Positions 1,122 through 62,120 of a DNA stretch of 64,000 bases are shown here, piece by piece; position 1 is the stretch's first letter; each line of letters opens with the position of its first letter. Both the position numbers and the translations under genes were made by a program. The notes below the pieces were generated by a model. It saw only the letters and a list, made by a program, of their open reading frames with translations, searched no databases and was not told where the DNA came from. Source of the stretch: Patescibacteria group bacterium (GTDB lineage Bacteria > Patescibacteriota > Microgenomatia > CAYGWK01); the NCBI GenBank assembly GCA_049322615.1, contig JBMORX010000009.1, positions 57,120 through 121,119 on the forward strand, written 5' to 3'.

Positions 1122-3170
1122 TTAATTTGGTTCGATGGGTTTGAGGGTGAATCTTTTGAGTTTTTCTTGCAGAGCAGGGAACTGGTTTAATTTGTCGATA
1201 ACCGACTCGGCGGCTTGGCGGGTTTGCTTAATAAGCCCCAGGTCAGTAAACGAGGCGACTCTTAAATCGGGAAATCCGTGTTGGGCGGTGCCATAGATTT
1301 CTCCAGGACCGCGAAGTTTTAAATCGAGTTCTGCCAGCTCTGCCCCAATGTACATTTTTTCCATAGCTTTAAGACGCTGAATTGCCCTTCCTTCGGTCAC
1401 CTCGGTGAAAAGGAGACAGAAAGACTGTTTGACGCTCCGGCCTACCCTGCCCCGAAGTTGGTGAAGCTGAGCCAAACCAAATCTGTCCGCAGCCTCAATC
1501 ATCATAATCGTCGCCTGGGGAATATCGATTCCGACCTCAACCACCGGAGTTGAAACAAGAACATCAAGAGTGCCCTGGCGAAATCTGTCAATTACTTCAT
1601 CTTTTTCTTTGCTTTTTAGTCTACCGTGTAAAAGTCCAAGTTTAAGGTCCGGAAAGATTTTTTTTGAAAGATTCTCAAACTCTACCGTTGCCGCTTTAAT
1701 AGACTTTAATGTTTCGCTTTCCTCAATTAAAGGACAAATAATAAAAGCCTGCTCGCTTGTCCCTTTTACCCTTTGTCTGATCCAGTTGTAGGCAGGCTGC
1801 CTTTTTATTGGCGGCACGACCCAGGTTTTTATTCTTTGTCTTCCCGGAGGCATCTCATCAAGAACTGAAAGGTCTAAATCTCCATACAAGGTAAGAGCAA
1901 TAGTTCTCGGGATTGGGGTGGCGGTCATGGTTAAAATGTGAGGGCTGGAGCCTTTCTTGATTAGCTCTCCTCTCTGTTCTACTCCAAAGCGGTGTTGTTC
2001 ATCAATGATGACAAGCCCAAGATTTTCAAATTTAATCCCTTTTTGGATTAGGGCATGGGTGCCGATATAAACATTGGGTGGGAAGTGGGAAGTGGGAAGT
2101 GGGAAGTGTTTTTTGCTTCCAGTCAAGAGAGCGATCTTTATTCCAAAGGGAGAAAGAAGTTGGTTTAAGGTCTGGTAGTGCTGGTTTGCCAAAATTTCTG
2201 TTGGCGCCATCAGAACAGACCGGAAGCCATTAAGATAAGCAATGTAGACAGCAATAGCGGCAACCACGGTTTTTCCTGAGCCAACATCGCCTTCTAAAAG
2301 TCGATTCATGGGTTTATCAAAAGCTAGATTGGCGAGGATCTCCCGGAGAGAGCGTTTTTGAGCACCGGTTAATTCGAATGGAAGGCTGTGAATAAAATCT
2401 AAAACTTTTTCCTGATCAATAAAAAATTTATTGGAGAGGGTTTTCTTTTGCCAATCTTGTTTTCTCTTCAAGCCTGCCAGTTGGATTAAGAAAAGTTCGT
2501 CAAAGGCGAGACGATTCCTTGCCTGTTCTGCCTGGATTTTATTTTCAGGAAAGTGGATCCAGCGTAAAGCAGGTGGCAAATTGAGTAAATTATATGTTTG
2601 AGTAATCTCTTTCGGCAAAAAATCATTTATGGATGGTAATATCTGTTCGAGTAATGGAGCAATTCGGGAACGAAGCCATTTTGAGGAAACGCCATAAGTT
2701 TCTGGATATATTGGGACTAGTCGACCTGTGTGGATAGCTTTCTGTTGTCTGTCTTCTGTTATCTGTTTTCTGAGTAGTTCATACTCTGGGGAAACCATGA
2801 CAATATTTCTACCAAACCAGTCTACTTTACCCGAGAGATTATACCACTCCCCTACTTTGATAGTTTTAACTAAAAACGGCTGGTTAAACCAAACGATTTC
2901 AATTTTGTCTGTGCTGTCCGCTACTTCCGCTTTTTGAATTTTTTTGCCAGATCGGGTGTATTCGTTTTTAATTGAAAGAACCTGACCTTTAATGGTGAGC
3001 GTTTCTCCAGGCTGGACTCTTGAAATGTCGGAGACCAAAGAGAAATCTTCGTAGCGGTGAGGGAAATGATAAATTAAATCTTCAACCGTTTTTATGCCAA
3101 GCTTTGAAAGTCTTTTGGCAAAAATCGGTCCAACCATATAGAGTTTAGAAACTGGGGTAGATAAGTCCAT
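1122..3170 (-). CDS. recG: ATP-dependent DNA helicase RecG
   Basis: Walker A GDVGSGKT and DEQHRFG helicase motifs; 682 aa. Confidence 0.9.
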   Translation of the reverse strand: MDLSTPVSKLYMVGPIFAKRLSKLGIKTVEDLIYHFPHRYEDFSLVSDISRVQPGETLTIKGQVLSIKNEYTRSGKKIQKAEVADSTDKIEIVWFNQPFLVKTIKVGEWYNLSGKVDWFGRNIVMVSPEYELLRKQITEDRQQKAIHTGRLVPIYPETYGVSSKWLRSRIAPLLEQILPSINDFLPKEITQTYNLLNLPPALRWIHFPENKIQAEQARNRLAFDELFLIQLAGLKRKQDWQKKTLSNKFFIDQEKVLDFIHSLPFELTGAQKRSLREILANLAFDKPMNRLLEGDVGSGKTVVAAIAVYIAYLNGFRSVLMAPTEILANQHYQTLNQLLSPFGIKIALLTGSKKHFPLPTSHFPPNVYIGTHALIQKGIKFENLGLVIIDEQHRFGVEQRGELIKKGSSPHILTMTATPIPRTIALTLYGDLDLSVLDEMPPGRQRIKTWVVPPIKRQPAYNWIRQRVKGTSEQAFIICPLIEESETLKSIKAATVEFENLSKKIFPDLKLGLLHGRLKSKEKDEVIDRFRQGTLDVLVSTPVVEVGIDIPQATIMMIEAADRFGLAQLHQLRGRVGRSVKQSFCLLFTEVTEGRAIQRLKAMEKMYIGAELAELDLKLRGPGEIYGTAQHGFPDLRVASFTDLGLIKQTRQAAESVIDKLNQFPALQEKLKRFTLKPIEPN

Positions 3171-3354
3171 TAAACTAATTATACCACCCAGCTGAGCTGG
3201 GTATTAACCCCGCTTAGCGGGGTCAGCGAAAGATTGTGGAGAGGAACGGAAGAAATGAAGTTAGAATAAGCGCCAAAGAGGCAACAACGACAATTATCGT
3301 CCAGAGTTTTTGTTGTTTTTTAGAAATCTTCATGAATCGCTGATTAGCGCTGAT

Positions 3355-4635
3355 TTATTGCTGATTAGCGCTGATTTTCAAGAATTTTCTTTTTCCAACT
3401 TTTATAATCATTCCGTCTTTAATAGTAATTGGTAATTGGTAATTGGTAATTGGATTGCCATCTATTTCCACTGCTTTCTGTCCGACCAGCCTTTTTGCTT
3501 CGGATCTACTTGTCGCCATGCCTGTACTAACCAGAAGCCCTATTACGTTAACAGAGGATTCTGACATATTGACTACTGGGATGTTGTCAGGTATTTCTTT
3601 TCGTTGAATTTGTCTCTCAAATTTTTTTTCTGCCTGGTGGACTTCGTCTGCGGAATGATAGAGAACCGTGATGTTTCTTGCTAGAATTTTTTTAAGGTCC
3701 ATTGGATGAATATCTCCTGTTTTCCATCGACTAATGAGAGACTTAACTTGTTCAAGAGGCAAGTCTGTTGCTAATTCAAAGAAAATTGGCATCAATTCAT
3801 CAGGGATAGACATTATTTTAAAAAACATGTTTGCTGAGGAATCTAATAAGTCAACAGTATTACCAAGGCTCTTACTCATTTTTTCTTGACCATCAATTCC
3901 TGGAAGATATTTTGTTAAAATGACTTCTTCTGGACGCTGACCAAACGATTTTTGTAAGTCTCGAGTCAGGACGAAATTGAAACGTTGATCAATTCCCCCC
4001 AGCTCCACGTCTGCCTTTACAGCCACTGAGTCATACGCTTGTAAAACAGGATAGAGCATTTCATGGAAAGCCAATACTTTCCCATCCTTCACTCTTTTAG
4101 AAAAAGTTTCATGAGACATTAATTGTCCATAAGTAACTTTTGACATTAATCTAATCAATTTTTCAAGATCAAATTGGCCATACCATTCGGATTGAAGACG
4201 AATCTCGGTTTTGTCGCGATCTAAAATCTTATAAACCTGCTGGAAATATTTTTCTGCATTTCGTTGGACCTCTTCTGCGCTTAATACTTTTCTTGTTGCG
4301 CTCATACCAGAAGGGTCACCTATTCTAGCGGTGTAATCACCGATTATAAAAACGGCTACATGTCCTAATTCCTGAAATTGTTTTAATTTTCTGATTGGAA
4401 CTGCATGTCCAATATGGGCAGACCGCATAGTGGGATCAATGCCGTATTTAACTCTAAGAGGTTTTTTTTCTAGAAGACGGTCTTTTAACCCTTGTTCTGT
4501 AATTATGTCTGCAACGCCTCGTTTTAGAATTTCATTTTCTAAATCTCGCTTTTCATCTTCTTGAAAACTATTCAAACCTAATGGCTGAGTCTCTTTATTA
4601 TTGTGGGTCATTTTTTTCTTTTTGTGTTTTAACAT
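3355..4635 (-). CDS. tyrS: tyrosine--tRNA ligase with C-terminal S4-like domain
   Basis: class I HIGH (AHIGHAVP) and KMSKS (KMSKSLGN) motifs; 426 aa. Confidence 0.88.
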   Translation of the reverse strand: MLKHKKKKMTHNNKETQPLGLNSFQEDEKRDLENEILKRGVADIITEQGLKDRLLEKKPLRVKYGIDPTMRSAHIGHAVPIRKLKQFQELGHVAVFIIGDYTARIGDPSGMSATRKVLSAEEVQRNAEKYFQQVYKILDRDKTEIRLQSEWYGQFDLEKLIRLMSKVTYGQLMSHETFSKRVKDGKVLAFHEMLYPVLQAYDSVAVKADVELGGIDQRFNFVLTRDLQKSFGQRPEEVILTKYLPGIDGQEKMSKSLGNTVDLLDSSANMFFKIMSIPDELMPIFFELATDLPLEQVKSLISRWKTGDIHPMDLKKILARNITVLYHSADEVHQAEKKFERQIQRKEIPDNIPVVNMSESSVNVIGLLVSTGMATSRSEAKRLVGQKAVEIDGNPITNYQLPITIKDGMIIKVGKRKFLKISANQQ

Positions 4636-10174: not shown

Positions 10175-12775
10175 ATGTCTTGGAAAAGGATTTGGAAAAG
10201 AAGAATTTCCCAACTTGGGGCTTATGCTTCACCTTCTCCTTACCGGCGGATTTCTGGGATCAGATTTATCTCAAATCTTTCCCTTTTAGGCTTTCTGGCA
10301 ATTGTTATCCTGACTTTTATCACCGCTTTTCTCTTTATTTGGTACGCCAAGGATTTACCAAGACCAGATAAGATTGTCCGCCGAGAAGGATTTTCCACCA
10401 AGATTTATGATCGCCAGGAGAATCTTCTATATGATGTTTTCAGTACCCAACGCCGGACGCCGGTTGAACTTTCCGAAGTTCCTTTATATCTGAGGGAGGC
10501 GACAATTGCCATTGAAGATAAAGATTTCTATAAACATCAAGGCTTTGATCCTAAAGGTTGGCTTAGGGCAGTCTACAACATCTTTATCCATCGCAAACTT
10601 CAAGGAGGTTCAACTTTAACTCAGCAATTGGTGAAAAATGTTTTACTTTCCTCTGAACGGACCCTGACCCGGAAAATTAAAGAATTTATTTTAGCAGTCC
10701 AGATTGAGAGAAAATATACTAAAGATCAAATTTTACAAATGTATTTAAATGAAGCCCCCTATGGTGGGACAGCCTGGGGGGTTGAGGCTGCCGCCGAGGT
10801 TTATTTTGGAAAGAAAGTTTCCCAACTAACGCTTGTTGAGTCAGCTATTTTAGCCGGTCTACCGCAGCGACCATCGCTTTATTCTCCCTTTGGTCAGGAT
10901 AAAGAAAGCTATAAATGGCGAACCGAGCAGGTTTTGCGCCGAATGAGAGAAGATGGATATATCTCCCGTGAACTTGAAATTGCTGCCAAAAAAGAGATCG
11001 CTAAAGTTGAGTTTGCCCCAAAAGGAACAAGTTTTAAGGCTCCCCATTTTGTCATGTATGTTAAAAAATTACTTGAAGAACGCTACGGCGAGAGGATGGT
11101 TGAACAGGGAGGACTTAAAGTGGTGACTACTTTGGACCTCGATCTTCAAGAAAAAGCCCAAGTTGCGGTATCAGAAGAGATTACTAAAGTGGAAAAACTC
11201 CATATAACAAATGGAGCAGCCTTGGTTTTAGACCCCAAAACCGGAGAGATTCTCGCCATGGTAGGCTCAAAAAACTATGATGATCCAAATTATGATGGCA
11301 AAGTTAATGTCACTTTATCTTTGCGTCAACCTGGTTCAGCCATAAAGCCAGTTACTTATGCGACTGCTTTTAAAAAAGGCTATACTCCTTCAGCCCTTCT
11401 TATGGATGTTAAGACTTCATTTCCTGGAGGAGATAAGCCGGAGTATATTCCGGAAAATTATGATGGTAAATTTCATGGTCAGCTTCAGGTTAGATATGCT
11501 CTTGGTAGTTCAATTAATGTCCCGGCAGTTAAAATGCTGGCTCGGGTTGGACTTCGAGATATGCTTGAGCAAGCCTATGATATGGGATTTACCACTCTTG
11601 AGCCTTCCCAGGAGAACCTTTCTCGTTTAGGTTTATCGGTAACGCTGGGAGGGGGAGAAGTCAGGCTTTTGGATATGGTCTCTGCATACTCTGCTTTTGC
11701 TAATGGAGGATTGAAGGTGATGCCAACGGCGATTTTGAAGGTAACAGATCATTCGGGTAAAGTTTTAGAAGAAGGCAAACCCATTCAAGGTCGAAAGGTC
11801 TTGACCCCAGAGCAGGCATATCTTATCTCAAACATTCTTTCCGATAATGAAGCAAGATTAATTACTTTTGGTTCAAGGTCTTCTCTTTATTTTGAGAATA
11901 GACAAGTAGCGGTTAAGACCGGAACCACTAATGATAAAAAGGATAACTGGACGGTAGGTTGGACCCCAAGTGTTATTGTTGGCGTCTGGGTTGGTAATAA
12001 TGATAATTCTCAAATGAAAGAGGTTGCCTCTGGAGTCTCGGGTGCCTCGCCAATTTGGCGAAGAATTTTATCTACTGCTTTAGAAGGAAAGCCGAAAGAA
12101 GATTTTCCAGTCCCCCAAGGGATCGTCAGTGCCGAGGTAGATAGTGTTTCTGGCTACCGAGCCCATGATGGTTTTCCTTCCCGAGTCGAATATTTTATCA
12201 AAGGCACCGAGCCAACAGGCGAGGATCCGGTGCATGTCAAACTTAAGGTTTGTAAAGCTTCGGGAAAGTTGGCAACTCCAGTTGATATTGCCCGAGGTGA
12301 TTATGAGGAAAAGGAATATTTCGTCTTTAAAGAGGATGATCCGACTGTTGCTCCTGGCGGGGAAAATAAGTGGCAAAAAGGAATTGATGAGTGGTTGGCG
12401 ACTCAATCTGATTCTCGCTACCACCCACCAACTGACTATTGCGAATCGCAAAATCAGATTGAGGTAAGAATAAAAGAGCCAGAAGACCACGCTCAAGTTG
12501 GTTCAAGTTTTAGAGTTAAAGTTGAGCCAGTTTCCTTAAACGAGATTGTTTTGGTTGAGATTTATGTCAACGGAGAAAATAAAGCAAGCATGACCAGTAT
12601 CCCTTATGAGCGCGATTTTACCCTGCCTGACGGAATTTACACCATTAAAGCTCGGGTTCGTGATAGCAAAGGAAACGAAGGCGAAAGAGAAATAAAAATT
12701 GGGGTCAATGTTCCCTGGGATTGGTCTCCTTCGCCCACGCCTACTCCAACCCTTTCCCCCACCCCAACTCCGTAA
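10175..12775 (+). CDS. mrcA: class A penicillin-binding protein (transglycosylase + transpeptidase) with a C-terminal Ig-like extension and PT-rich tail
   Basis: GT51 motifs EDKDFYKHQGFD and GGSTLTQQ; TP motifs SGSAIKP, SIN and KTGTT. Start moved to ATG 10175 (MSWKRIW, TM helix follows); SPSPTPTPTLSPTPTP tail. Confidence 0.88.
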   Translation: MSWKRIWKRRISQLGAYASPSPYRRISGIRFISNLSLLGFLAIVILTFITAFLFIWYAKDLPRPDKIVRREGFSTKIYDRQENLLYDVFSTQRRTPVELSEVPLYLREATIAIEDKDFYKHQGFDPKGWLRAVYNIFIHRKLQGGSTLTQQLVKNVLLSSERTLTRKIKEFILAVQIERKYTKDQILQMYLNEAPYGGTAWGVEAAAEVYFGKKVSQLTLVESAILAGLPQRPSLYSPFGQDKESYKWRTEQVLRRMREDGYISRELEIAAKKEIAKVEFAPKGTSFKAPHFVMYVKKLLEERYGERMVEQGGLKVVTTLDLDLQEKAQVAVSEEITKVEKLHITNGAALVLDPKTGEILAMVGSKNYDDPNYDGKVNVTLSLRQPGSAIKPVTYATAFKKGYTPSALLMDVKTSFPGGDKPEYIPENYDGKFHGQLQVRYALGSSINVPAVKMLARVGLRDMLEQAYDMGFTTLEPSQENLSRLGLSVTLGGGEVRLLDMVSAYSAFANGGLKVMPTAILKVTDHSGKVLEEGKPIQGRKVLTPEQAYLISNILSDNEARLITFGSRSSLYFENRQVAVKTGTTNDKKDNWTVGWTPSVIVGVWVGNNDNSQMKEVASGVSGASPIWRRILSTALEGKPKEDFPVPQGIVSAEVDSVSGYRAHDGFPSRVEYFIKGTEPTGEDPVHVKLKVCKASGKLATPVDIARGDYEEKEYFVFKEDDPTVAPGGENKWQKGIDEWLATQSDSRYHPPTDYCESQNQIEVRIKEPEDHAQVGSSFRVKVEPVSLNEIVLVEIYVNGENKASMTSIPYERDFTLPDGIYTIKARVRDSKGNEGEREIKIGVNVPWDWSPSPTPTPTLSPTPTP

Positions 12776-12805
12776 TAGTTTGTATTAGTCTGATGTCTTG
12801 ATTTT

Positions 12806-13219: not shown

Positions 13220-15330
13220 AGAGTTTTAAGAATAGCGCCAAATTTGCTTTTTACTGCGGAAATTATTTTTTCTCTTATTTTCTCTACCTCTTTATCGGTC
13301 AAAGTTTTCTTAGGGTGCTGATAGATAATTCTGAAAGTTCGAGTGTCTCCATGAATATCGATTAATTCAACACTTTGAATAATTGAACTAGACACTTTAA
13401 TTAATTGAAGTAGATCTCCAATTAAAGTCTTTGGTGGAACAACAAAAGCCAAATCCTCAACAATAGCAGGATATTTGGGAATGGGGGTAAAGGTTTTAGT
13501 TTTTTTGGCAAGTAAAATTAAAGCTTCAAAATCAAGGTCAAGAACAACCGTTTTGTTTAAAATTTCGAAATTTGCCAAAACCCGAGGGTTGACTTCACCA
13601 ATTGTTCCTAAGACATTATTGGTCGTTTCCATAACCGCTGCTTTTCCCTGGCTAAAATAGGGCTCTCTTCCTACCCAAGGCTTAAAATGGATATCCTCAA
13701 TTCCCAAATGCTCGAAAATAATCTCCGAGATGCCCTTTAAGTAGGAAAAGTCTTCCCCAGTTACCAAACAAGTAAGTCTGGTTTTTTCCAGAGGGAGATT
13801 TCCTTTTTGGGGAAGATAAACATTAGCCATCTCAAAAATTTTCACTTTGGGAAAATTGGCTTGGTTTTGGGCGACTGTTTTAAGCAGACTCTCAAGAAGG
13901 GAAATCCTTAAGTATTCAAGATCGCTGGTGAGCGGGTTTTTGAGTTTAAGATGGTCTTCGGTCTTTAGTCCAGTTTTTTGAATTGAGTCTTTTCCGATGA
14001 AGGAATAATTGTAAACTTCGGAGAAGCCTTTGCCAACAAGCACCTCTTTAATTTTATTCTCATATTCAAAGAACATCCCTATTTTTCCTTTTTGAGGTTG
14101 AGGTTGGGGTAAAAGACCGAACAAAGGATGAAGCGGAGGAATATTGCCGGGAAGTCTAAAGTAGCCATAGATTCTGGCGATTTCCTCAATTAAGTCTTCT
14201 TCGTGAGATATGTCTTGGGCGCGAAAGCTTGGAACGGAGAAAGTGAGAAGTGCCGTGCGTCGCCAGAGGCTACTCGCCGTTGCGTAGCCACGCTTTGGCG
14301 GAGCGCGGTGCCGGCGGCGCGAGAAATGAGAAGTGAGAAGTGAGAAGCCAAGAGATTCAAGGATACTGATGATTTTATTCTTTGGAATTTCGATGCCGAT
14401 GATTTTATTGACTAAATCAAGATCCAGTTTGATTTTTTTGCTTTTTTGGGGATTAGGATAAATATCTATTAATTTACTGGCGACCCTTCCTTGGCAGAGG
14501 TCTTCCATTAGCTTTACTCCTTGAGAAATGACAGGAATAATTCCTTCTAAATCAATCCCTCTTTCAAATCTCACCGCTGCCTCGGTCCGGTGAGCCAGAG
14601 CCATCGACGTCTGTCTGATTCTGACGGGATTATAAGCCTGAACGAAGAAAAGGACTCTTTTAGTGTTTTCGTCTATTTGGCTATTTTCCGCACCCATGAT
14701 ACCGCAAAGATCAATTAATCTTTCTTTTCCATCCTCGATAACGATATCTCCACCTGGAAGGGTCCGGGTAGCCCCATCGAGAGTGGTAATTTTTTCTCCT
14801 GGTCGTGACAGCCTCATAATCATTTTTGCCCCAAGAATTTTGTCGTAATCAAAAGTATGGATTGGTTGTCCGGTTTCGATCATTAAATAATTGGAAATAT
14901 CAACCACATTGGAAAGTGGTCTGATGCCAACTTTTTCTAATCTCTCAGCCATCCATTTTGGAGAAGGGGCAACCTTTACCTGGTCGATAACGACAGCAGA
15001 AAACCGAGGACAGAGAGTCTCATCTTTGATTTCTACGGAAAGATTAAATTTTGGATTTTTCATCTCTAGAGGAAGAATCTTGGGTGATGCAAATTCCGCT
15101 TTTATACCGTATCCTGAAAGAGCCGCCGCCGCTTCCCGGGCGATGCCGCGAACCGATAAACAATCATAGCGATTGACAGTTATCTCGATTTCCAAAATCT
15201 GGTCATCTTTTTCCGAATGGATTTTTTCCACTGATTGGCTACAAAGAGAAAGAACTTCAGCCACCTTCTCTGGGCTTGCTTCAGTTTTAAGAAAGTCTTT
15301 CAACCAAGAAAAAGGAATAAGAATATTCAT
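13216..15330 (-). CDS. pheT: phenylalanine--tRNA ligase beta subunit carrying an in-frame 37-aa insertion encoded by a GC-rich repeat
   Basis: B3/B4, B5 and FDX-ACB-like blocks; lies downstream of pheS; insertion at 14237-14348. Confidence 0.88.
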   Translation of the reverse strand: MNILIPFSWLKDFLKTEASPEKVAEVLSLCSQSVEKIHSEKDDQILEIEITVNRYDCLSVRGIAREAAAALSGYGIKAEFASPKILPLEMKNPKFNLSVEIKDETLCPRFSAVVIDQVKVAPSPKWMAERLEKVGIRPLSNVVDISNYLMIETGQPIHTFDYDKILGAKMIMRLSRPGEKITTLDGATRTLPGGDIVIEDGKERLIDLCGIMGAENSQIDENTKRVLFFVQAYNPVRIRQTSMALAHRTEAAVRFERGIDLEGIIPVISQGVKLMEDLCQGRVASKLIDIYPNPQKSKKIKLDLDLVNKIIGIEIPKNKIISILESLGFSLLTSHFSRRRHRAPPKRGYATASSLWRRTALLTFSVPSFRAQDISHEEDLIEEIARIYGYFRLPGNIPPLHPLFGLLPQPQPQKGKIGMFFEYENKIKEVLVGKGFSEVYNYSFIGKDSIQKTGLKTEDHLKLKNPLTSDLEYLRISLLESLLKTVAQNQANFPKVKIFEMANVYLPQKGNLPLEKTRLTCLVTGEDFSYLKGISEIIFEHLGIEDIHFKPWVGREPYFSQGKAAVMETTNNVLGTIGEVNPRVLANFEILNKTVVLDLDFEALILLAKKTKTFTPIPKYPAIVEDLAFVVPPKTLIGDLLQLIKVSSSIIQSVELIDIHGDTRTFRIIYQHPKKTLTDKEVEKIREKIISAVKSKFGAILKTL
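14237..14348. repeat. GC-rich 74-nt hairpin core flanked by GAGAAGT/GGGAAGT heptamers, in frame in pheT
   Basis: core gtgccgtgcgtcgccagaggctactcgccgttgcgtagccacgctttggcggagcgcggtgccggcggcgcgag matches 56210-56312 exactly by eye; nested palindrome GGCTAC..GTAGCC. Confidence 0.85.
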
Positions 15331-21584: not shown

Positions 21585-21604
21585 AATATCAGAGTCTTGC
21601 TAAA

Positions 21605-21790
21605 AAGTCAAGCCCCGCACCAAGCTTACCTCGCGCCGCGAATTGCGACCCGTCAGACGGGTCTGGCACGTTCGACGTGCCGTTTGCGCTCGCGAGGGGG
21701 CGCTGGTGCGGGGCGCAGACCCCGCATACACGCCCTTGCGACGCGAACACGAAGTATTCGGGAGCAAGTAAGTGTTGTGCGGGGTCAAAC
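21605..21790. repeat. GC-rich structured intergenic element (family E) with terminal inverted repeats and several internal hairpins
   Basis: GC-rich island in an AT-rich genome; ends CCCCGCAC..GTGCGGGG; hairpins GACCCGTCAGACGGGTC, GCACGTTCGACGTGC and TGCGGGGCGCAGACCCCGCA; shares CCCGCAGACCCCG and CGGGGTCAA with 37125-37245. Confidence 0.6.
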
Positions 21791-28006: not shown

Positions 28007-28767
28007 AGATTAAGTTCTAATCCGTCGTAAGCAATGTGGAAGCTTTTGCCGCCTTTTTCCTGAACAAATTTCTCTAGATCCTGGTGTTTTCCGGTTTTAT
28101 GACCAATATGGGTAAAGTAAACTTGTCGTGCTTTCAGTTTTTTGCCAAGAACCAATCCCTCAATAATACTTTCGTGAATTCTGGTTTGTCCGGCTTTTCC
28201 TAAAGAGGAGCCATCCAAAATTAAAAGATGGACATCTCTGCAAGTTTTTTCTTGGGATTTAGGGAGCGACCTTATATCTGGAAGATAGCAAACGAGTTTA
28301 TCCCCTTTCATCTTAAGTCCCCAAGTTGGAAAATGGTCATGTTCAATGGGAATAAAGGTAAATTTAACTTTGTCTATTTCAAAAACTTCAGGCGGACGAA
28401 TGGTCTCAGGTAAAAATGGGTCAAGGGGGTATTTGTGAATCTGCCGTAGTCCAACCAACGTTTCTTGAGTGGCATAAAGTTTAAGCTCTGGTTGGTGATT
28501 GTAAAGATGAGTTAGGTCGTAAAATCCCAAGATATGGTCAGGGTGGGCATGGGTAAGAATTAGAGCCTTTAGATTTGTAATTTGTAATTTGTAATTTGTA
28601 ATTTGGGAGTAGATATCTGGTCCGGCGTCGATTAAAACAGTGTCATTAACCAAAATTACTGGCCTGGTTCTTCTATCTTTGGGGTCTTTGGAAGTACAAA
28701 TTTCACAAGTACAGCCAATCCGTGGTAGCGGCCAGCCAGCAGAAGTTCCCAAGAAAAGAATTTTCAT
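28003..28767 (-). CDS. MBL-fold metallo-hydrolase
   Basis: THAHPDH motif; contains an in-frame ATTTGTA x4 repeat (28573-28600). Confidence 0.8.
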   Translation of the reverse strand: MKILFLGTSAGWPLPRIGCTCEICTSKDPKDRRTRPVILVNDTVLIDAGPDIYSQITNYKLQITNLKALILTHAHPDHILGFYDLTHLYNHQPELKLYATQETLVGLRQIHKYPLDPFLPETIRPPEVFEIDKVKFTFIPIEHDHFPTWGLKMKGDKLVCYLPDIRSLPKSQEKTCRDVHLLILDGSSLGKAGQTRIHESIIEGLVLGKKLKARQVYFTHIGHKTGKHQDLEKFVQEKGGKSFHIAYDGLELNL

Positions 28768-31963: not shown

Positions 31964-32719
31964 TCAAGTTTTTTGGCAGAGGACAAAAATTGAGGGACCA
32001 AAAAAAGGTGAGAAGTGGGAAGAAAGAAGTGAGAAGTATTTCTCAAGAAATAGGAGGATTGGCAGAGGAATAATTTTTTTGACTAGAGGGTGGCGGAAGT
32101 TTGAGACTGAAAGAGAAGAGGAAACCTTAAAACCTGCTTTTTCCAACTCTCGATAAATAAATTGAGGATGATGGTTGAGAAAGGGAATGGTTGAAGCGGC
32201 GATGGATTCGAGTGAGCGCTGGTCTGAAGGTTCTAGATTTGAAGTGAAGCCAAAATCACCTCTTATCCAGGCACGAAGACGAGCCCGGAAATGAATTTTG
32301 TTAGCAAATTCCAAGATTAAAAAACCATTTGGTTTTAGGACCCTGGAAGCCTCAAGGAACACTTTTTGGGGGTTTTGAAGGTGATGGACCACCCGAATCA
32401 TTAAAGCAACATCAAAACTGCCATCTTGCCCTGGAAGCCTCTCCCCTCTCCCCTTTCTAAATTCAATATTTTTAAACTTTTTTAGATTTTTTTGAGCAAT
32501 GTTTAATAATTTTTCTGAAGGATCAACTAAAAGAGAGTGTTTAAAAACTGGAGCATAAACTTCGGCAAGCCTGCCAAATCCCCCACCAATGTCTATTAAA
32601 CTGTCCTTTTTGGGAATTTTTAAAAAAAATTTCTTTAAGGCAATTTTTTCTGCCTCATCCTCATACTCTCTTCCCTGCCAAAACTTGGGGTAGTTGTAAA
32701 AATCGTATGGTACAGCCAC
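31964..32719 (-). CDS. class I SAM-dependent methyltransferase
   Basis: motif I LIDIGGGFGRLAE; GAGAAGT/GGGAAGT heptamer stretch in frame near the C-terminus (32005-32040). Confidence 0.8.
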   Translation of the reverse strand: MAVPYDFYNYPKFWQGREYEDEAEKIALKKFFLKIPKKDSLIDIGGGFGRLAEVYAPVFKHSLLVDPSEKLLNIAQKNLKKFKNIEFRKGRGERLPGQDGSFDVALMIRVVHHLQNPQKVFLEASRVLKPNGFLILEFANKIHFRARLRAWIRGDFGFTSNLEPSDQRSLESIAASTIPFLNHHPQFIYRELEKAGFKVSSSLSVSNFRHPLVKKIIPLPILLFLEKYFSLLSSHFSPFFGPSIFVLCQKT

Positions 32720-33994: not shown

Positions 33995-35292
33995 CCGATA
34001 CCAAAAACCAAGGATTCTTTGAAGCAAGCGGTTGAAAAATGAGGTTTTTTGATTAATTAATTTCCAGGTTTCAAAAACTTTAATCTTGCCTTCGGGTAGC
34101 CCTTCCCAAGAAAAATCAAAGTCTCCAGCAATGCTTGATGTTTCCAAAGTGTAATCAAATGTCCACGTTTCTCCTGGTTTAACTAGAACTCCTTCTGGCA
34201 GTTTCAAATCCGATAATTGCAAACCAGAGGTTTGAGATTTTAGTTTAAATTCTTTTTCTCCCCAAATAGACTGTCCAGTATTTTTTAAAGTAATTTTTCC
34301 CTGATATTGAAAATTTGTCGGTAAAAATGGAAGAAAGAAAAACTCAACAATTTCGTATCTTTCTTCCTGGGCTGGTTCACCTCTGACCTTGCTTAAATTT
34401 TTCACTGCCTCAAACTGCGGATAGGGATTCCCCTCTTTATCAAGCCAAGAAAAGTTTTCAAAAGGAGGAAAAGGATAATTTAAAATAAACGGAGTAACCG
34501 CTACCACCTTTTCATCTTTTAACCAAACATTTTCAAACGCTTGTTTGATAAATTGAGCTGTTACCTCTTTGTTATAAAATTTTTCATTTTTAATTTTTAA
34601 TTTTTCATTTTTGTACGGCCAGCCGGTTTCCGTGATAAAAACCGGTAGATTGAGTTTTAAAACCGAAAGCTCCCATTCATAACCTCTAATCGTGGCTCTT
34701 CCCTTTTGCCAGGGCTTACCGACAAAACCATGATTTGGATAAGAGTGAGAGACCCAACCATCAAGCCGCAAGAATATGCCTGGAACCTCAAAATTTACTT
34801 CTCTAAGAAATTTTGCCTCGTCCATAGTTGAATTTGAATTAGGGGCGGCTTGGTCGAAACCAGCGTTGAGGAGAAAAAAGTCTTCACTTTTTTGCTTAAA
34901 AATGGTAATGGCATTGTCTAAAATCTTGGCGTATTCTTTAGGATTTCTCTCGCTTCCCCATTCTTTGTCATGGTTTGGTTCATTAAAGACAATGAGGTAG
35001 CGATTCTTGACTGGCCAATTAAGACCGTCTAAAAAATTCGCCATTTGGATAATTGTCTCCTCCGTTGGTTTTTTCCAGACCCCTTTTCTTGGTTTCGGTC
35101 ATCTTCTTGAATAACCACGGTTACATATCCCCAATCACCGCTACTTGAATTTACCAGCTCTGCGGCCAGAGGAAGATCTTCTGCTTGAGTGATATGAATA
35201 CCAAATTTGTTGTTTGGGGAAGCCCAGGCTGGTTGAGCAAACCTGGAAAATGATAAAATTAGAAGAATAGTTAATAATTTTTTCATTCGCAA
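33992..35292 (-). pseudogene. secreted glycoside-hydrolase-like protein (GH5-like NEP motif) split into two ORFs by a frameshift at a homopolymer run
   Basis: signal peptide in ORF 35029..35292; VFNEPNH in ORF 33992..35044; frames differ by 1 nt around the A/T run at 35063-35068. Confidence 0.5.
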
Positions 35293-44851: not shown

Positions 44852-44852
44852 T

Positions 44853-47487: not shown

Positions 47488-48741
47488 TCAAACAAACTTT
47501 CTTAATTTCAAATGATAGGCTCGGGCGAAACGGTGGGATTCGTCGCGGATTCTTTTTAAAAGATTTAAGGCAGGCGAATCTTCCGGCAATCTTATCTCCG
47601 AATATTTGATATTTGATATTTGATATTTGATATTAGGCGCAATGAGAATCTCCAGTTTCTTTGCCAAACCAACTACGGGAATTTTCAGACCAAGCTGATT
47701 TAAGACATCGATTGCGCCACTTATCTGTCCCTTTCCTCCATCAATCAAGATTAAATCCGGAAATTCCCATTCAGGATGTTTAAATCGTCTCAAAATCATT
47801 TCTTTAATCATCGCCACATCATCAGGAGTCCCCTTGGTTTTTATTCTAAATCGGCGATATTGAGACTTATCCGCCTCACCATCTACAAAAACAACCATTC
47901 CCCCTGTTCCTTTGGTTCCGGAAATATTTGAGATATCAAATCCCTCTATCCTTGAGAGATGTTCCATTTCCAAAAGTCTTCGAAGTTCAGAAACCTCTTC
48001 CTGGCGAATATTTTGTAAAAGAAAAGGGTTTTCTAGATATTCGTCTGCCAGATGCCTTTTTTGGATAAGCCATTCGATTTTTTGAATTTTGTCTCGTAGC
48101 TCTTTGGCTTTTAAAAAATCCTCAAGTTTTGCCGCCATTTCCATGTCTTTTTTTAGATTGTTTACTACCTTGTTACTTTTTCGCTCAAGCAGATTTTTGA
48201 GTTGAGAAATGGTCTTTTTATAAGTTTTTCTATCTTCTTCTGACTGATTGACACAAGTTCCAGGACAAAGTTTTAAATCAAAATAAAGACAGGGTTTTTT
48301 GGGCAGTTTTCGACAAGATCGATAAGGGAAAATCCGTCGCAAGAGTTTCAAAACAGTTCGAACTGTTTTTGCTTGAGGATATGGTCCATATCCTCCTTCA
48401 GTCTTTCTCGCAGGGTAAACTCTAGGAAAAGGTTCTTGGGTTATTTTTATGTAAAGCGGGCTTTTATCGTCTTTGAGTCTAGTGTTATACTTTGGTTGAT
48501 GTTTTTTGATTAAGGCAGCCTCAAGTAAAAGTGCCTCAAATTCTGATTCAGCCAATATGTGGTCTATTTTGGAGATTTTTGGACCAAAAAAAGACTGGGA
48601 GACAAAATATGACTTAACTCTTCTTCGAAGATTGGTTGCCTTGCCGATATAAAGAATCTCTCTCCTGGCGTTTTTGAATATATAGACGCCTGATTTTTCT
48701 GGCAATGATAAGTAAAGTGGCTGCTCCAAGAAGACCTCCAA
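47488..48741 (-). CDS. uvrC: excinuclease ABC subunit C (short form)
   Basis: N-terminal GIY-YIG (GVYIFKN...ILYIGKATNLRRRV), Cys-rich block and UvrC central domain; in-frame ATATTTG x4 repeat at 47602-47631. Confidence 0.8.
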   Translation of the reverse strand: MEVFLEQPLYLSLPEKSGVYIFKNARREILYIGKATNLRRRVKSYFVSQSFFGPKISKIDHILAESEFEALLLEAALIKKHQPKYNTRLKDDKSPLYIKITQEPFPRVYPARKTEGGYGPYPQAKTVRTVLKLLRRIFPYRSCRKLPKKPCLYFDLKLCPGTCVNQSEEDRKTYKKTISQLKNLLERKSNKVVNNLKKDMEMAAKLEDFLKAKELRDKIQKIEWLIQKRHLADEYLENPFLLQNIRQEEVSELRRLLEMEHLSRIEGFDISNISGTKGTGGMVVFVDGEADKSQYRRFRIKTKGTPDDVAMIKEMILRRFKHPEWEFPDLILIDGGKGQISGAIDVLNQLGLKIPVVGLAKKLEILIAPNIKYQISNIKYSEIRLPEDSPALNLLKRIRDESHRFARAYHLKLRKFV

Positions 48742-50503
48742 AAATTGGCAAGAAATAATTAAGAATCAGGGAATTTATGAAAAAATTATACTCTATTTTT
48801 TTGTCATTTAAAAGAGCAGTAAGTTTTCCTTGCCCCTGATAGGTTATCTTTTCTGAGGAAATTTTAACTGGAACGAGTCTTTTTGAGAATGGGGGAAGTA
48901 TCTCAAAATAGGTTTCCCCGTAAGGTCTGACTTTAATATTTGTTCCGGAAAGAGCAAGATTTAAATCATAAATTGCCTCAGTCCCGGAATTTTCTAGAAC
49001 AATTGTTCCACTTTCGCCCTTTTCACTAAAAATTTCTTTCGGCAATAAAAATTCAAGTTCGGGCAAAGTTGGCTTTCCCTCTTTCGGTTTGCCAAAGGAA
49101 ACCTGGACATCTTTCTGGGGCAGACCAGACTTTTTATAGGCTCCAGCCGGCGGGGGAGAATTGCTTTCTTTACCATGAATAGCAAAAACAAAATGTCCAA
49201 GGTCAAGCTTATCAAAATAATTTATTCCCCCGGTTGTATCTTGCCAAGTTGGGTCAATTTGAATCCAAGTTTTCTTTGCCTCATCCCAGTATTCAGGCCA
49301 AGAATGCAAAACATCTTGAGCCAAGCTTAAAGGTCGAAGGTAAGGATTAGTGGTGTAGGCAAAACCATTAAGTTCTCTGGAGGGAAATCCTGCTGCCCGG
49401 GCTAAAGCAATAAAAAGATCAGTGTATTCGGTACAGATTGCCCTTTGGGGATTATCTAGGGCAAGTTTGGCACCAAGTCTCTTGGCTCCAATTCTGGCTC
49501 GACTAAAATCATAATCCAAAGTTTTAACAATATATTCATGAATTGCTTTTGGGGTTTTCAGCTTTTTCCCTAAATTGGAGATTTCTGGATCATTGATTTC
49601 CCAATAATTTTTTTCTTCAAGAAAACTTTCGAGATTATCTTCGGTTTCTTCAACTTTAAGAGTTGGATTGGCAAAAATTTTTACCTGCCCCTCGACTTGA
49701 ATTTCTAACTCTTCTTTCGGCTTTAATTTAAAAATGGCTAGCCAATTTCCATCACTGTCTGTCTCCACATTTTCAGGTTCTGGCTTAATTTCCCAATAAC
49801 TCATTTTTTGATATGAGGTATCTGGGGGGAGGGCGATTTTCTGCCAAACTTGCCCATCTTTAGGGTTTTCAAGATGATATTTCAGGGAAAAATCAAAGAT
49901 TTGAAACTCGCCAAAAGCGGCAATCACCCCGGATGATACCAGATGATTTTTGTTAAAGAAGAAAAATTGGTAATCTCCTTCAATCCGCTGTGTTTGAGGA
50001 TTTGGCGAAACATAAGCAGGTTTGCCAAAGGCAAGAGGAATCTTGAGGGTAAGATTATACACATCAATATCTTCAGGACTTGCCAGTTTAGGAATAGTCA
50101 ATTCCCAAACCTGTCCAGTGCGACGCAAGAGTTCTGGAGCATCATATGAAAGAGTGAATTTTAAGGTTTTATTGATACCTACTACTTTCTCATTAAAATC
50201 AACTTTGATGGTTGTTTCCTCATTTGTGGTCTCAACAGACGTTTTTGCTAGTCCAAGACTGTCCTCTGCCTTGACATTTTCTGGCTCCCCTCGTTCAAGT
50301 TTCAAAGAATACGAGGTGGCATAAATATTGGATAGTTTATTAGTTAAAGAAATATTCTGGATTATATGGAGTCTGCCATCTAAACTTGCCTCGTAAGAAA
50401 CGTCGTAAGAAGTAGAAAACTCTTGAGAAGCAAAAACGGGCTTAAAAGAAAGTAAAAAGTAAAAAGTAAAAAGTAAAAACAGAATTTTCGAGAGAAATCT
50501 CAT
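48614..50503 (-). CDS. secreted, membrane-anchored transglutaminase-like (Cys-His-Asp) domain protein
   Basis: AICTEYTDLFIALARAAGFPSR...HSWPEYWD core; signal peptide encoded partly by an AGTAAAA tandem repeat; C-terminal TM helix; 128-nt overlap with uvrC. Confidence 0.55.
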   Translation of the reverse strand: MRFLSKILFLLFTFYFLLSFKPVFASQEFSTSYDVSYEASLDGRLHIIQNISLTNKLSNIYATSYSLKLERGEPENVKAEDSLGLAKTSVETTNEETTIKVDFNEKVVGINKTLKFTLSYDAPELLRRTGQVWELTIPKLASPEDIDVYNLTLKIPLAFGKPAYVSPNPQTQRIEGDYQFFFFNKNHLVSSGVIAAFGEFQIFDFSLKYHLENPKDGQVWQKIALPPDTSYQKMSYWEIKPEPENVETDSDGNWLAIFKLKPKEELEIQVEGQVKIFANPTLKVEETEDNLESFLEEKNYWEINDPEISNLGKKLKTPKAIHEYIVKTLDYDFSRARIGAKRLGAKLALDNPQRAICTEYTDLFIALARAAGFPSRELNGFAYTTNPYLRPLSLAQDVLHSWPEYWDEAKKTWIQIDPTWQDTTGGINYFDKLDLGHFVFAIHGKESNSPPPAGAYKKSGLPQKDVQVSFGKPKEGKPTLPELEFLLPKEIFSEKGESGTIVLENSGTEAIYDLNLALSGTNIKVRPYGETYFEILPPFSKRLVPVKISSEKITYQGQGKLTALLNDKKIEYNFFINSLILNYFLPIFGGLLGAATLLIIARKIRRLYIQKRQERDSLYRQGNQSSKKS

Positions 50504-54906: not shown

Positions 54907-57003
54907 TTAACTAGCCGTAATTTCCTTAATCTTGTCCCTAATTTTGGCTGCGAGTTCAAAGTTTAGATCGCGAGCTGCTTCTTTCATTTCTTTGGTTAAG
55001 CGCTTGACTAGCCTTAGGCGATCTTCAGGTGTCAGTTGTCCAGAATCAAGATGTTTAAGTTCTGACAAAGCAGATTGATAACTTCTGATTCCGAAAATAA
55101 ATGGGTCTATTCTTTCTTCGCGGACTACCAGTTTTTCCCTAATTGGCTTTTGAATACTCCGAGGAGTAATTTTGTGTTTTTTATTGTATTCAAGTTGAAT
55201 GTTTCTTCTCCGGGAAACTTCAGCGATTGCCCGCTTCATTGAACCAGTCAGATTATCAGCATACATAATTACCTGTCCATTTATATGCCTAGCTGCCCGA
55301 CCCATGACCTGAATCAAAGAGGTTTCTGAGCGCAAAAACCCCTCTTTATCCGCATCTAAAATTGCCACCAAAGAAACTTCGGGCAAATCAAGTCCTTCTC
55401 GTAAAAGATTAATCCCCACCACCACATCATATTTTCCCAAACGCAAATCATCTAAAATATCAGACCGGTCAAGAGTCTGGATCTCTGAATGAAGGTAATG
55501 AACTTTTACCCCTTTTTCCTGAAGATATAAAGCCAAATCTTCAGCCATTCTTTTAGTTAAAGTCGTTACCAGAACCCTTTCTCTCGCTTTGACCCTTTTG
55601 TCTATTTCTAAAATCAAGTTATCAATCTGTCCCTCAGTTTTCTTAATGGAAATCTCTGGGTCGGGAATTCCAGTTGGGCGAATAAGTTGTTCCACGGGCT
55701 TGCCAGTTTTTTCAAGTTCCCAGTCTGCTGGGGTGGCTGAAGTATAAATTGTTTGGGGAATCCTCCTTAAAAATTCTGCAAATTTCAGAGGTCGGTTATC
55801 TAAAGCCGCCGGCAGTCTAAACCCAAATTTGACCAAGGTTTCCTTTCTTGAGCGGTCGCCATTATACATCCCTTCAATTTGGGGAATGCTCATGTGCGAC
55901 TCGTCAATAAATAAAAGCCAATTATTCTGGTAAGGCTCTTTAAAATAATCAAGTAAAGTGTAGGGTGGCTCGCCAGGTTTTCGACCATCAAAATAGCGAG
56001 AATAATTTTCAACCCCATTGACATATCCAGTTTCTTCAATCATCTCCAAATCATAATTCACTCTTTGTTCTAAGCGGTGAGCCTCAAGTATCTTTCCTTG
56101 GGAACGGAGTTCTCTAAGTCTTTCTTCCAGATCTTTCCTTATTTCCACAAAAACATCTGAAAGACTGGCTGGATCAGTCATATAGTGTTTGGCAGGATAG
56201 ATTAAGACAGAAGTGGGAAGGGCGAAGTGCCGTGCGTCGCCAGAGGCTACTCGCCGTTGCGTAGCCACGCTTTGGCGGAGCGCGGTGCCGGCGGCGCGAG
56301 AAGTGGGAAGAATTTTGCCATTTAGGGGATCTATTTTGGCGATTTTCGTAATCCTCTCTCCCTCCATTTCAATTCTGACAGCCACATCTTCGTAGGCTGG
56401 GAAAATGTCAATCGTGTCTCCTCTGACTCGGAAAGTGCCTCGGTGAAAACCATAGTCTGCCCGATCGTATTGAAGACGGGTAAGCCTTCTTAATATTTCC
56501 TGGCGATCAATTTTTTGTCCAATTTCTACTTCTAAAACAAAATGTCCATATTCTCTGGGCGAACCAAGGTTATAAATACAAGAAACTGAAGCAACAATGA
56601 TGGTATCTGGTCTGGTTAAAATATTGGTCGTAGACTCCAGTCTTAATTTGTCAATTAATTCATTTATTTCTGTTTCTTTTTCAATATAAGTGTCGGTTTG
56701 GGGAATATAAGCCTCGGGTTGATAATAATCATAATAAGAAACAAAGAAACAAACCGCGTTCTCGGGAAAGAAATCGCGAAATTCTTGATAAAGCTGGGCG
56801 GCTAGGGTTTTGTTATGAGAAATAACCAAAGTCGGTCGTTGCAGTTTGGCAATGACATTAGCCATGGTAAAAGTTTTTCCCGAACCAGTTACCCCAAGTA
56901 AAACTTGATGTTTTTCCCCAGCCCGAATTCCGGTCACCAATTTCTCAATCGCCTCCGGCTGGTCTCCGGTGGGTTTAAAAGTTGAATGGAGTTTAAATTC
57001 CAT
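54907..57003 (-). CDS. uvrB: excinuclease ABC subunit B carrying an in-frame ~34-aa insertion encoded by the GC-rich 74-nt core
   Basis: [10 protein letters not shown] Walker A, helicase motifs, C-terminal UvrB/UvrC interaction helix; insertion at 56210-56312. Confidence 0.9.
56210..56312. repeat. GC-rich 74-nt hairpin core flanked by GGGAAGT heptamers, in frame in uvrB
   Basis: core identical to 14250-14323; the frame of insertion differs from the pheT copy. Confidence 0.85.
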
Positions 57004-61135: not shown

Positions 61136-62120
61136 ATATTTCTAAAATTTCCTCTGGGGTAAAACCCAAAGCAGGCTTACCAATACTTTCAATCTCTCCC
61201 TGCCAGCCTTGGAGTTTATCACGAACTAGTTTTGATAACTGTCCAAGCGAAGACTCGACAATGGTTATTTTTTTGACAGTTTTGCTAATCTTTTTAAGAC
61301 CTTCATCAGGGAAAGGCCAGAGGGTTTTCGGTCTAAAAAGAAAAACTCCGGCATCTTTGGCTGCTAAAGCCACTGTTCCATAGGCAATGATAATTTTTTC
61401 CGCTGGTTTACCACTGACTTCATATTCACAAATTTCATCTGCCATTTTTTGCCAGTCAGAAAAATTTCTCATATTAAGCTCATAAACTTCCTCTTCTAAG
61501 TTATAGCAATTCCTCATATTCGTGGTTAAAATCGGCTCAATTTTTTCATTTTTCATTTTTAATTTTTCATTGATGTTAACTTCCCCCTTCATCTTCCCCA
61601 AATATCCATCATAGAGAATAAAAGTCGGAAATCGATACTTCCAGGCATTGGCAAAGGTTTTAAGGGTCAAATCGTATAATTCTTGGAGAGACGATGGTGC
61701 GTAAACTAATCTTAATCCTTCGCCATTGCCACCGAAAGCGGTCAAATAAAGCTCTTGCTGGGAATAGATGACCTGTCCGGTTGAAGGACCACCCCGTTGA
61801 CCAATCAGACAAACTGTCGGTAGCCTCATCCCTTCTGCCATTGAGATTGCATCCTGCATCAAAACAGTTCCCGGACCAGCGGTGGCCGTAAAAGCCGGAA
61901 CTCCGGCTAAAACACTTCCGCAAACCCCAAATCCGGCTGCCATCTCATCTTCAGTCTGAAGATACTTTCTCTTATTTTTCTCGGCTAATCTAACCCAGGT
62001 GGAGAAGACTTCAGTTGTTGGTGTAATTGGATAGCCAAACATAATCTGGGCCCCGGCGTCAAACGCCGCCTGAGCCAAAACTTCATTTCCCATTAAAAAA
62101 GATCGCATGTTATAATTCAT
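61125..62120 (-). CDS. porA: pyruvate/2-oxoacid:ferredoxin oxidoreductase alpha subunit
   Basis: domain I/II blocks; 331 aa; first gene of the por operon. Confidence 0.8.
   Translation of the reverse strand: MNYNMRSFLMGNEVLAQAAFDAGAQIMFGYPITPTTEVFSTWVRLAEKNKRKYLQTEDEMAAGFGVCGSVLAGVPAFTATAGPGTVLMQDAISMAEGMRLPTVCLIGQRGGPSTGQVIYSQQELYLTAFGGNGEGLRLVYAPSSLQELYDLTLKTFANAWKYRFPTFILYDGYLGKMKGEVNINEKLKMKNEKIEPILTTNMRNCYNLEEEVYELNMRNFSDWQKMADEICEYEVSGKPAEKIIIAYGTVALAAKDAGVFLFRPKTLWPFPDEGLKKISKTVKKITIVESSLGQLSKLVRDKLQGWQGEIESIGKPALGFTPEEILEIYGA

Follow-up and report, generated by a model that had tools for sequence, protein, structure and literature searches.

Heptanucleotides are the most abundant class of long simple sequence repeats (LSSRs) in many prokaryotes, and slippage related to the DNA polymerase has been proposed as their origin (Mrazek 2007, as cited in PMC4679880 and PMC4692102). 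The cause suggested by Mrazek and colleagues for the 7-nt unit, as relayed in PMC4679880, is the length of DNA that is held by the polymerase. As described in the same two papers, the known heptanucleotide LSSRs occur mainly in large genomes (Burkholderia, cyanobacteria, Xanthomonas, actinobacteria) and are mainly intergenic (Mrazek, Guo and Shah 2007), and LSSRs with units that are not multiples of three are reported to avoid coding DNA (PMC4679880, PMC4692102). The heptamer excess itself has been known since 2007, its cause has stayed unexplained over the same time, and it has been regarded as an intergenic feature. The subject of the present analysis is a 64-kb stretch of contig JBMORX010000009.1 (positions 57,120 to 121,119) from a Patescibacteria group bacterium, in which tandem heptamer arrays lie within housekeeping genes; this entire stretch of 64,000 nt is referred to below as the window. 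The finding here is a period-7 signature in essential genes of small genomes of the Candidate Phyla Radiation (CPR). Literature searches, incomplete in coverage, turned up no account of heptamer arrays from Patescibacteria or from the coding loops of essential genes.

The window contains five perfect heptamer arrays of 4.1–4.7 copies (runs of 29–33 nt), all of which lie in genes of the minus strand. Based on Pfam, the host genes encode RecG, TyrS, a Lactamase_B_2 hydrolase, a short UvrC with GIY-YIG, UVR and RNase H-like domains, and a Transglut_core protein; each host open reading frame (ORF) stays in one frame across its array and has Pfam domain matches to either side of it. The recG array, (GTGGGAA)x4.4 at 2078..2108 (CACTTCC on the coding strand), gives the peptide HFPLPTSHFP in a variable loop that lies between LLTG and GTHAL, and the tyrS array, (GTAATTG)x4.1 at 3425..3453 (CCAATTA on the coding strand), encodes NPITNYQLPITI (PITNYQLPIT) in the C-terminal S4 domain. 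The array of the hydrolase, which has a metallo-beta-lactamase (MBL) fold, is (ATTTGTA)x4.7 at 28573..28605 and encodes QITNYKLQITN, and that of uvrC, (ATATTTG)x4.7 at 47602..47634, encodes NIKYQISNIKY in a loop of the RNase H-like domain. The fifth array, (AAAGTAA)x4.4 at 50449..50479, falls in the hydrophobic core LFLLFTFYFLLSF of the N-terminal signal/anchor segment of the transglutaminase-like protein. An initial annotation made from the sequence had listed these five arrays as in-frame features of housekeeping genes; all five are present as described, with the ends given there off by 0–5 nt.

The same annotation judged the arrays to be far above chance, and the period statistics bear this out. 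Of the perfect runs of at least three copies in the window, six have period 7, one has period 5 and one has period 6; periods 8–15 are not represented. An approximate-array scan of the window returned eight arrays of period 7 and none of any other period from 4 to 12, and the same scan found no comparable array in 20 composition-preserving block shuffles of the window. A chance origin of the arrays in the window is therefore excluded.

A search of the window for further heptamer runs revealed at least five decayed or split period-7 arrays beyond the five perfect ones, again in minus-strand orientation. A second slot in recG, between PEYE and IHTG, holds a decayed array (TTTCTGT x4.9, 77% matches) at 2739..2772. 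In pheT, an array in the B5 domain is cut by an insert, with the left half (GTGAGAA units) at 14236..14252, a GC-rich insert of 69 nt (23 codons) at 14253..14321, and the right half (GAGAAGT x3.9 by Tandem Repeats Finder, 95% matches) at 14322..14347. A second, identical copy of the 69-nt insert occupies 56230..56298 in uvrB, flanked by the halves of another array at 56210..56229 (GAAGTGG-type) and 56299..56312 (AGAAGTG GGAAGAA). A decayed array of the GTGRGAA family lies near the C-terminus of a methyltransferase gene (32008..32037), making this unit family common to four genes of the window (recG, pheT, the methyltransferase and uvrB). Finally, imperfect arrays of ATTTTTN (about five copies, 34579..34612) and TTTTTCA (x3.7, 61542..61567) are found inside a 350-aa ORF (33992-35044) and a pyruvate:ferredoxin oxidoreductase subunit gene (61125-62120), respectively.

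The distribution of the arrays was examined in a comparison sample of 116 loci from genomes and metagenomes, individual members of which are named below by handles such as L104. Together with the window these loci amount to 1.22 Mb, in which 31 arrays have period 7 and one each have periods 6, 8 and 12. At a lower threshold the CPR loci yield 49 arrays of period 7 versus at most nine of any other period, while the control loci yield one. The density of arrays is 12.5 per 100 kb in the window, 3–9 per 100 kb in most groups of Patescibacteria relatives, and zero in 582 kb of non-CPR sequence (Clostridia loci and bacteria with a long UvrC); one small, 15-kb group of Patescibacteria relatives also has none. 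The window itself belongs to a Microgenomates-type metagenome-assembled genome, its TyrS, RecG and UvrC being 100% identical to proteins encoded on a 201,931-bp Patescibacteria contig at NCBI. The relatives carry the names Shapirobacteria, Microgenomates, Gottesmanbacteria and Woesebacteria. The arrays are thus non-random and characteristic of the lineage. They are also a feature of coding DNA, as 30 of the 31 lie inside ORFs of at least 80 aa, and without exception the arrays of the window and of more than 100 loci keep the reading frame. In alignments of RecG, UvrC and TyrS, the arrays fall in gap-rich, length-variable columns, which are the least conserved of each protein. Their length is confined to 22–38 nt, with a maximum of about 5.4 units. 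The units are AT-rich (26% GC versus 40% for the genome), as is expected if strands must melt and re-anneal, and tend to be without G or without C (24 of 33, compared to 46% under the null; p = 0.002), although no clean rule emerges. No significant bias in the orientation of the host genes was found.

The initial annotation described the peptides encoded by the arrays as inserts of 9–10 aa. Comparison with orthologues does not support this description, as a net insertion is absent at five of the six sites compared: the tyrS, uvrC, MBL hydrolase, signal peptide and pheT loops are all within 0–2 aa of array-less orthologues. The NPITNYQLPITI segment of TyrS aligns with the non-repetitive loops of 24 homologues without gaps or with a difference of 1–2 residues, and the orthologous tyrS DNA in L097, L101 and L102 is not periodic. 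The UvrC loop has 14 codons, equal to that of the 69%-identical orthologue in L109, and the array segment of the MBL hydrolase has the modal length of its family, with no change in length relative to homologues. Similarly, the signal peptide is within 1–2 residues of the lengths in L109 and L110, and PheT, once the 69-nt insert is subtracted, is two residues shorter than its counterpart in L104. The sixth site is the RecG loop, with 18 residues compared to a basal 13.

Orthologous sites in relatives indicate that the arrays occupy old slots whose contents turn over. In recG the slot has the layout AGC AAR AAA, 33 nt, AAT, and in the window these 33 nt are filled by the perfect (CACTTCC)x4.4. 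Decayed CACTTCC units fill the slot in L105 and L106, with 24 of 33 nt in L105 identical to the window. In contrast, L104, the closest relative (RecG 78% and penicillin-binding protein 86% identical to the window), has a perfect array of an unrelated unit, (GCGATAT)x4.1, in the identical 33 nt. Arrays of the (GAAACTG) type are found in L001, L107 and L108 and of (ACACCTY) in L002, while L003 and L004 have no array at this slot. Codon alignment of recG from L105 and L108 gives 89% identity overall and 85–98% in the flanks versus 42% in the loop window; for the window and L106, identity is 82% in the loop versus 69% overall. In tyrS, the array of the window is present without change in L107 (29/29), where the flanks are identical at 89/100 positions over 100 nt downstream and at 44/60 over 60 nt upstream. 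The same slot in L104 holds a decayed array of a different unit and equal length between flanks that are about 90% identical. At the pheT site, the (CACTTCT)n of the window corresponds to (AACTTAA)x5 in L104. In addition, the UvrC linkers of many Patescibacteria contain 7-aa-periodic peptides (FPISNFQFP, FQISNFKFQIKSK, LQTTNYKLQT, WKMENGKWKME), which are translations of intact or decayed heptamer arrays.

These comparisons bear on the age of the arrays, which had been taken for possible recent insertions. The decayed recG array in L105 and L106, the intact tyrS array in L107 and the separate array at the pheT site of L104 are not consistent with this proposal. It had also been reasoned that an ancient peptide, encoded in distant relatives by non-repetitive DNA, would render the repeat coincidental. 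Relatives do carry the peptide; however, it is encoded there by decayed or intact repeat, indicating that the repeat is old rather than coincidental. Fourfold-degenerate third positions are near saturation between most relatives. Neutral drift alone was considered as the source of the unit differences and rejected, since the flanks of the L105/L108 recG slots and of the tyrS C-termini have diverged by only about 10% while the slots differ completely. The slots are old and undergo fast turnover, being two to three times more diverged than their flanks within a fixed length.

Comparison with the relatives shows other features of genes in the window. The aminoacyl-tRNA synthetase genes of the window are mosaic with respect to L104: TyrS (3355-4635), PheT (13216-15330) and PheS (15332-16366) are only 41–51% identical to their L104 counterparts, compared to the values of 86% and 78% for the neighboring penicillin-binding protein and RecG, yet near-identity is found over the N-terminal ~70 residues of PheS and the C-terminal ~50 residues of TyrS, which implies that breakpoints of recombination lie within the genes. 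A period-10 tandem repeat (CGCTGATTAG x3.8) at 3338-3376 extends across the tyrS stop codon into the adjacent downstream DNA and is nearly identical in L104 and L107. The tail of the penicillin-binding protein (12723-12776) is rich in proline, threonine and serine (SPSPTPTPTLSPTPTP) and is kept in L104.

A single copy-number polymorphism was found, and it is a multiple of three units. In the second recG slot, L116 reads TCATCAA TCATTAA TCATCAA TCATCTA... where L107 and L001 read TCATCTA... only, a difference of exactly 21 nt (three units, 7 aa) within one cluster of RecG proteins at 90% identity. The long form is also present in the more distant L105 and L108, which suggests that the short form of L107 and L001 is probably the product of a three-unit deletion. 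No change of one or two units was seen in the arrays examined; the pairs L102/L103 and L097/L098 are identical or 99.9% identical without indels between partners and are uninformative in this respect. The statement in the initial annotation that any change in copy number would frameshift an essential gene is therefore correct for one or two units but not for three, and the suggestion that no copy number but the present one is viable goes too far, given that RecG genes more than 90% identical differ by three units. The window RecG itself has an alternative start.

The arrays probably result from strand slippage or misaligned copying with a register of 7 nt, the products of which are sifted by selection for an intact frame and a suitable loop length. 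According to this proposal, a mutational process operating throughout Microgenomates-type Patescibacteria would misalign DNA strands specifically by 7 nt, via replication or repair slippage and via misaligned templated copying. Because the genomes are gene-dense, most such events would fall in coding DNA, where purifying selection would then act on them. Changes of one or two units would cause frameshifts and be lost, while two kinds of change would survive, namely three-unit steps, amounting to 21 nt or 7 aa, and length-neutral copying, in which a unit overwrites the adjacent one. Survival would be confined to parts of the protein that accept any sequence, for example linkers, loops at the surface and the hydrophobic core of a signal peptide. 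The outcome would be a slot of ~22–38 nt between conserved codons, holding ~4–5 copies of one heptamer read in all three frames. Ongoing out-of-register copying would keep some arrays perfect by concerted evolution, while others would decay or be overwritten by a different unit, such that the slot would evolve much faster than its flanks at an almost constant length.

Length-neutral copying, which may correspond to transient misalignment during synthesis or to repair of a slipped heteroduplex, is required by this proposal for three reasons: arrays arise and stay perfect without a change in loop length, they end at conserved codons, and two species with differing flanks have the same tyrS array. 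For the latter, the probability of 29 unchanged sites at ~86% flank identity is ~0.01 under simple decay; with homogenization between units there are only seven independent sites, and the probability becomes ~0.86^7 = 0.35.

Several points weigh against slippage in this form. The length spectrum of the RecG loop among 95 relatives has peaks at 13 and then 16–18 residues but none at 20 (13 + 7), so simple growth by 21 nt fails to explain the recG slot. In a tree of 43 RecG proteins with the loop masked, the unit types FPxPTS, KLETGNS and SPITNHQ each occur in at least two separate clades; this recurrence, like that of GTGRGAA at four genes of the window, is not predicted by purely local random seeding and suggests preferred units, seeding from conserved flanks, or some dispersal. 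The replacement of CACTTCC by GCGATAT needs more substitutions than the divergence of the flanks predicts, and consequently a raised mutation rate inside arrays has to be assumed. Finally, the proteins of the window organism are database singletons, and the comparison of copy numbers is one between assembled loci of relatives. A simpler model in which the arrays are 7-aa (+21-nt) insertions was rejected based on the lack of net insertion at the five sites and of a 13 + 7 peak in RecG, with the three-unit step kept as one component of the slippage proposal.

A bolder version, which is considered unlikely, would replace generic slippage with a dedicated DNA-writing activity in Microgenomates that works in a 7-nt register (a polymerase, a primase or an HUH enzyme). 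Such an activity would rewrite permissive loop DNA to heptamer arrays at constant length, so that slots in sister lineages flip between unrelated perfect arrays, and the arrays would in turn act as landing pads for in-frame hairpins resembling repetitive extragenic palindromic (REP) elements. If true, the combination of dedicated 7-nt writing and hairpin landing pads would constitute a driver of loop evolution in the proteins of reduced genomes that has not been described before.

The hairpins raise the alternative that a mobile element generates or disperses the arrays, either as GC-rich hairpins that are moved by a transposase of the REP-associated tyrosine transposase (RAYT) type and carry arrays or leave scars, or by a nuclease with a 7-nt stagger that duplicates its target repeatedly. 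Elements associated with the arrays are indeed present, as the initial annotation had anticipated. The arrays of pheT and uvrB, both of the GTGRGAA type that recurs in recG and the methyltransferase gene, share an identical stretch of 79 nt, composed of the 69-nt core with GAAGTG on one side and AGAA on the other, and the insert is in frame in both genes even though it is read in two different frames. No Rfam family was found for the 69-nt insert, its DNA fold is no better than that of shuffles (z = 0.26), and a scan of viral contigs with the core gave no matches; the same scan with an 18-nt hairpin gave five, probably by chance. Smaller GC-rich hairpins lie inside arrays of relatives. An insert of 21 nt (CCTGCCGGCRAGGCAGG) is found in the (GAAACTG) array of RecG in L107 and in the (TGGAAAA) array of UvrC in L110, and a 30-nt hairpin in L108 occupies the RecG position of the L107 insert. 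The 17-nt GC hairpin CCTGCCGGCRAGGCAGG is common to three organisms (window 22699-22715, L107 3073-3089, L110 5360-5376), where the window copy is intergenic and followed by a run of T, while the L107 and L110 copies are clean, in-frame inserts of 21 nt.

Adjoining uvrB on the minus strand is a gene for a putative transposase with a Y1_Tnp domain, of the IS200-like or REP-associated type (54171-54821). The Pfam Y1_Tnp match scores 30.6 bits (cut-off 23), and the best NCBIfam match, REP_Tyr_transpos (REP-associated tyrosine transposase), scores 47.5 bits, below the cut-off of 80; no relative of the protein was found by sequence in the PDB. The gene has on both sides a REP-like element of 39 nt (TTGCACCCCNGGGGTGA...CACACCTGCGGA; 54146-54184 and 54860-54898) that contains the palindrome CACCCCNGGGGTG, and a third copy lies in frame inside uvrA (51507-51545). 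A transposase gene flanked by a short palindromic repeat that is also present elsewhere in the genome is a trait of REP/RAYT systems. As judged from sequence, this RAYT-like gene and the inserts fit single-strand (HUH) transposition of REP-like elements into arrays.

The element does not, however, appear to be the source of the arrays. L001 and P0527 provide an exact empty site for the 21-nt insert of L107 and P0125; filled and empty sites differ by exactly 21 nt, indicating that there is no target duplication, and the interpretation of arrays as target-site-duplication scars of hairpin elements was rejected on this basis. Removal of any insert restores the phasing of its array, giving ~5 phased units in the case of the 69-nt insert. 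Since the element inserts into arrays without target duplication, the origin of the arrays is not explained by it. Moreover, most arrays have no insert and unrelated units, they add no length relative to orthologues, and the pheT array has a counterpart in L104, which is without the insert. While the occurrence of the same unit types in separate RecG clades would be accounted for by a dispersing element, it is doubtful that mobility generated the arrays, and the simpler reading is that REP-like elements target arrays rather than create them.

Two GC-rich features of the window lie apart from the arrays. A GC-rich island (68% GC, 160–176 nt) at 21600-21775, between the genes for a DUF5660 protein and trigger factor, has a much better predicted fold than shuffled sequence on either strand (z about -5 to -5.6) and matches no Rfam family; an unannotated structured RNA and a large palindromic element are both candidate identities. 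Eleven tRNA genes form a dense cluster with short GC-rich spacers on the plus strand (43539-45498).

A functional role under selection, in which the arrays would serve as sites for single-stranded DNA-binding (SSB) or cold-shock-type proteins, as G-quadruplexes, as translational pause sites or as useful 7-aa peptide repeats, is improbable. The narrow bounds on array size (22–38 nt) and the preservation of the tyrS array between the window and L107 despite differing flanks would be expected of such elements, although with homogenization at the level of the unit the latter is unremarkable. The plus strand of the recG array is G3N4 repeated with a fifth GGG just upstream, which is a canonical G-quadruplex motif on the recG template strand, and a preference for four units in Xanthomonas and Nostoc has been read as related to G-quadruplexes (PMC4692102). 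This array is, however, the only one in the window with G-runs, the other four perfect arrays having no GGG. In addition, sister lineages hold unrelated units at the same slot, many arrays are decayed, and the arrays sit exactly in the least conserved protein columns.

A role as contingency (phase-variation) loci or as programmed-frameshift sites, by which the genes would be switched on and off, is very improbable: a 7-nt change in copy number does shift the frame, and heptanucleotide phase-variable genes are known in pathogens, but the hosts here are core housekeeping genes (recG, tyrS, pheT, uvrB, uvrC) rather than surface or restriction-modification genes, the arrays lie mid-gene or near the C-terminus, all of them are in frame, and the only polymorphism is a multiple of three units. 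Assembly or sequencing artefacts are least credible of all, for although every sequence derives from metagenome assemblies and repeats trouble assemblers (PMC9879509), arrays of ~30 nt are shorter than reads and most assembly k-mers, keep the reading frame, recur in independent assemblies (NCBI, JGI, ENA, Logan) and, in the case of tyrS, are identical in two different organisms and pipelines.

The coding location of the arrays is of interest for understanding heptamer repeats in general. Selection on frame and loop length exposes the underlying process as three-unit steps, in-place homogenization and complete replacement of the unit in a fixed slot, and the many orthologous slots offer a natural system for measuring register-specific slippage. 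The arrays also explain the odd, low-complexity loop peptides with 7-aa periodicity in Patescibacteria proteins (FPISNFQ, LETGNSK, ITNYKLQ), which could mislead alignment, phylogeny and structure prediction. Furthermore, heptamer arrays provide a route by which REP-like elements can colonize coding DNA.

Among described repeats, the prokaryotic heptanucleotide LSSRs are similar to the arrays of the window in that tandem units of 7 nt far outnumber those of other lengths in both, at least as LSSRs are portrayed in the papers cited at the outset. The traits shared are head-to-tail 7-nt units beyond chance, an excess of period 7, and change by whole units (one case, in relatives). Unlike the mainly intergenic LSSRs, the arrays here occur in a small genome, lie inside ORFs that include essential genes (30 of 31), and reach at most ~5.4 units; an intergenic location is a typical property of LSSRs rather than part of their definition, and it does not apply here. 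The short tandemly repeated repetitive (STRR) sequences of heterocystous cyanobacteria comprise few fixed unit families and are mostly non-coding. They resemble the present arrays as heptamer tandem repeats dispersed around the genome, and the occurrence of GTGRGAA at four genes of the window and of AATTTCC-like units in several relatives is a hint of comparable unit families. In contrast to STRRs, most units here, in 64 kb of genome, are unique to their locus and lie in coding loops, and the host belongs to the Patescibacteria/Microgenomates. STRR heptamers of Calothrix PCC 7601 are among the examples cited in PMC4692102.

The GGGNATC repeats of Xanthomonas and Nostoc (PMC4692102) are also built of 7-nt units, with about four units markedly preferred, and the recG array, as (GGGAAGT)n, shares their G3N4 architecture; all other arrays here are without G-runs, so that of the present set only the recG array has the four or more G-runs of at least 3 nt, spaced by 1–7 nt, that characterize G-quadruplexes, and the arrays do not belong to that class. 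The TAACTGA repeats of marine Beggiatoaceae are likewise lineage-characteristic heptamer direct repeats, with 2–6 copies, but differ in having a single fixed unit, a location between genes and upstream of start codons, and a proposed regulatory role (PMC4679880). The STRR, GGGNATC and TAACTGA repeats all occur chiefly outside genes, and most of them form families with a fixed unit. The tandem repeats of Borgs are perfect, evolve fast, lie inside ORFs and create new peptide segments in tolerant regions, as do the arrays here; however, Borg units within ORFs are all divisible by three (PMC9879509), whereas a 7-nt unit yields a peptide that cycles through three frames, and only three-unit steps keep the frame. 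Simple sequence repeat contingency loci, such as those of Haemophilus (PMC2651432), share the property of non-triplet repeats in coding DNA, but are long tracts in surface or modification genes with out-of-frame switching (PMC2651432), none of which was seen here.

The GC-rich inserts are comparable to REP/REPIN elements and their RAYTs (PMC3116915), being small GC-rich hairpins present in several genomic copies together with a flanked Y1 transposase gene. REPs are classically extragenic, whereas the copies here lie inside uvrA, uvrB and pheT, with several precisely within heptamer arrays. Rickettsia palindromic elements are found inserted in frame in genes. With these the GC-rich inserts share in-frame insertion in housekeeping genes.

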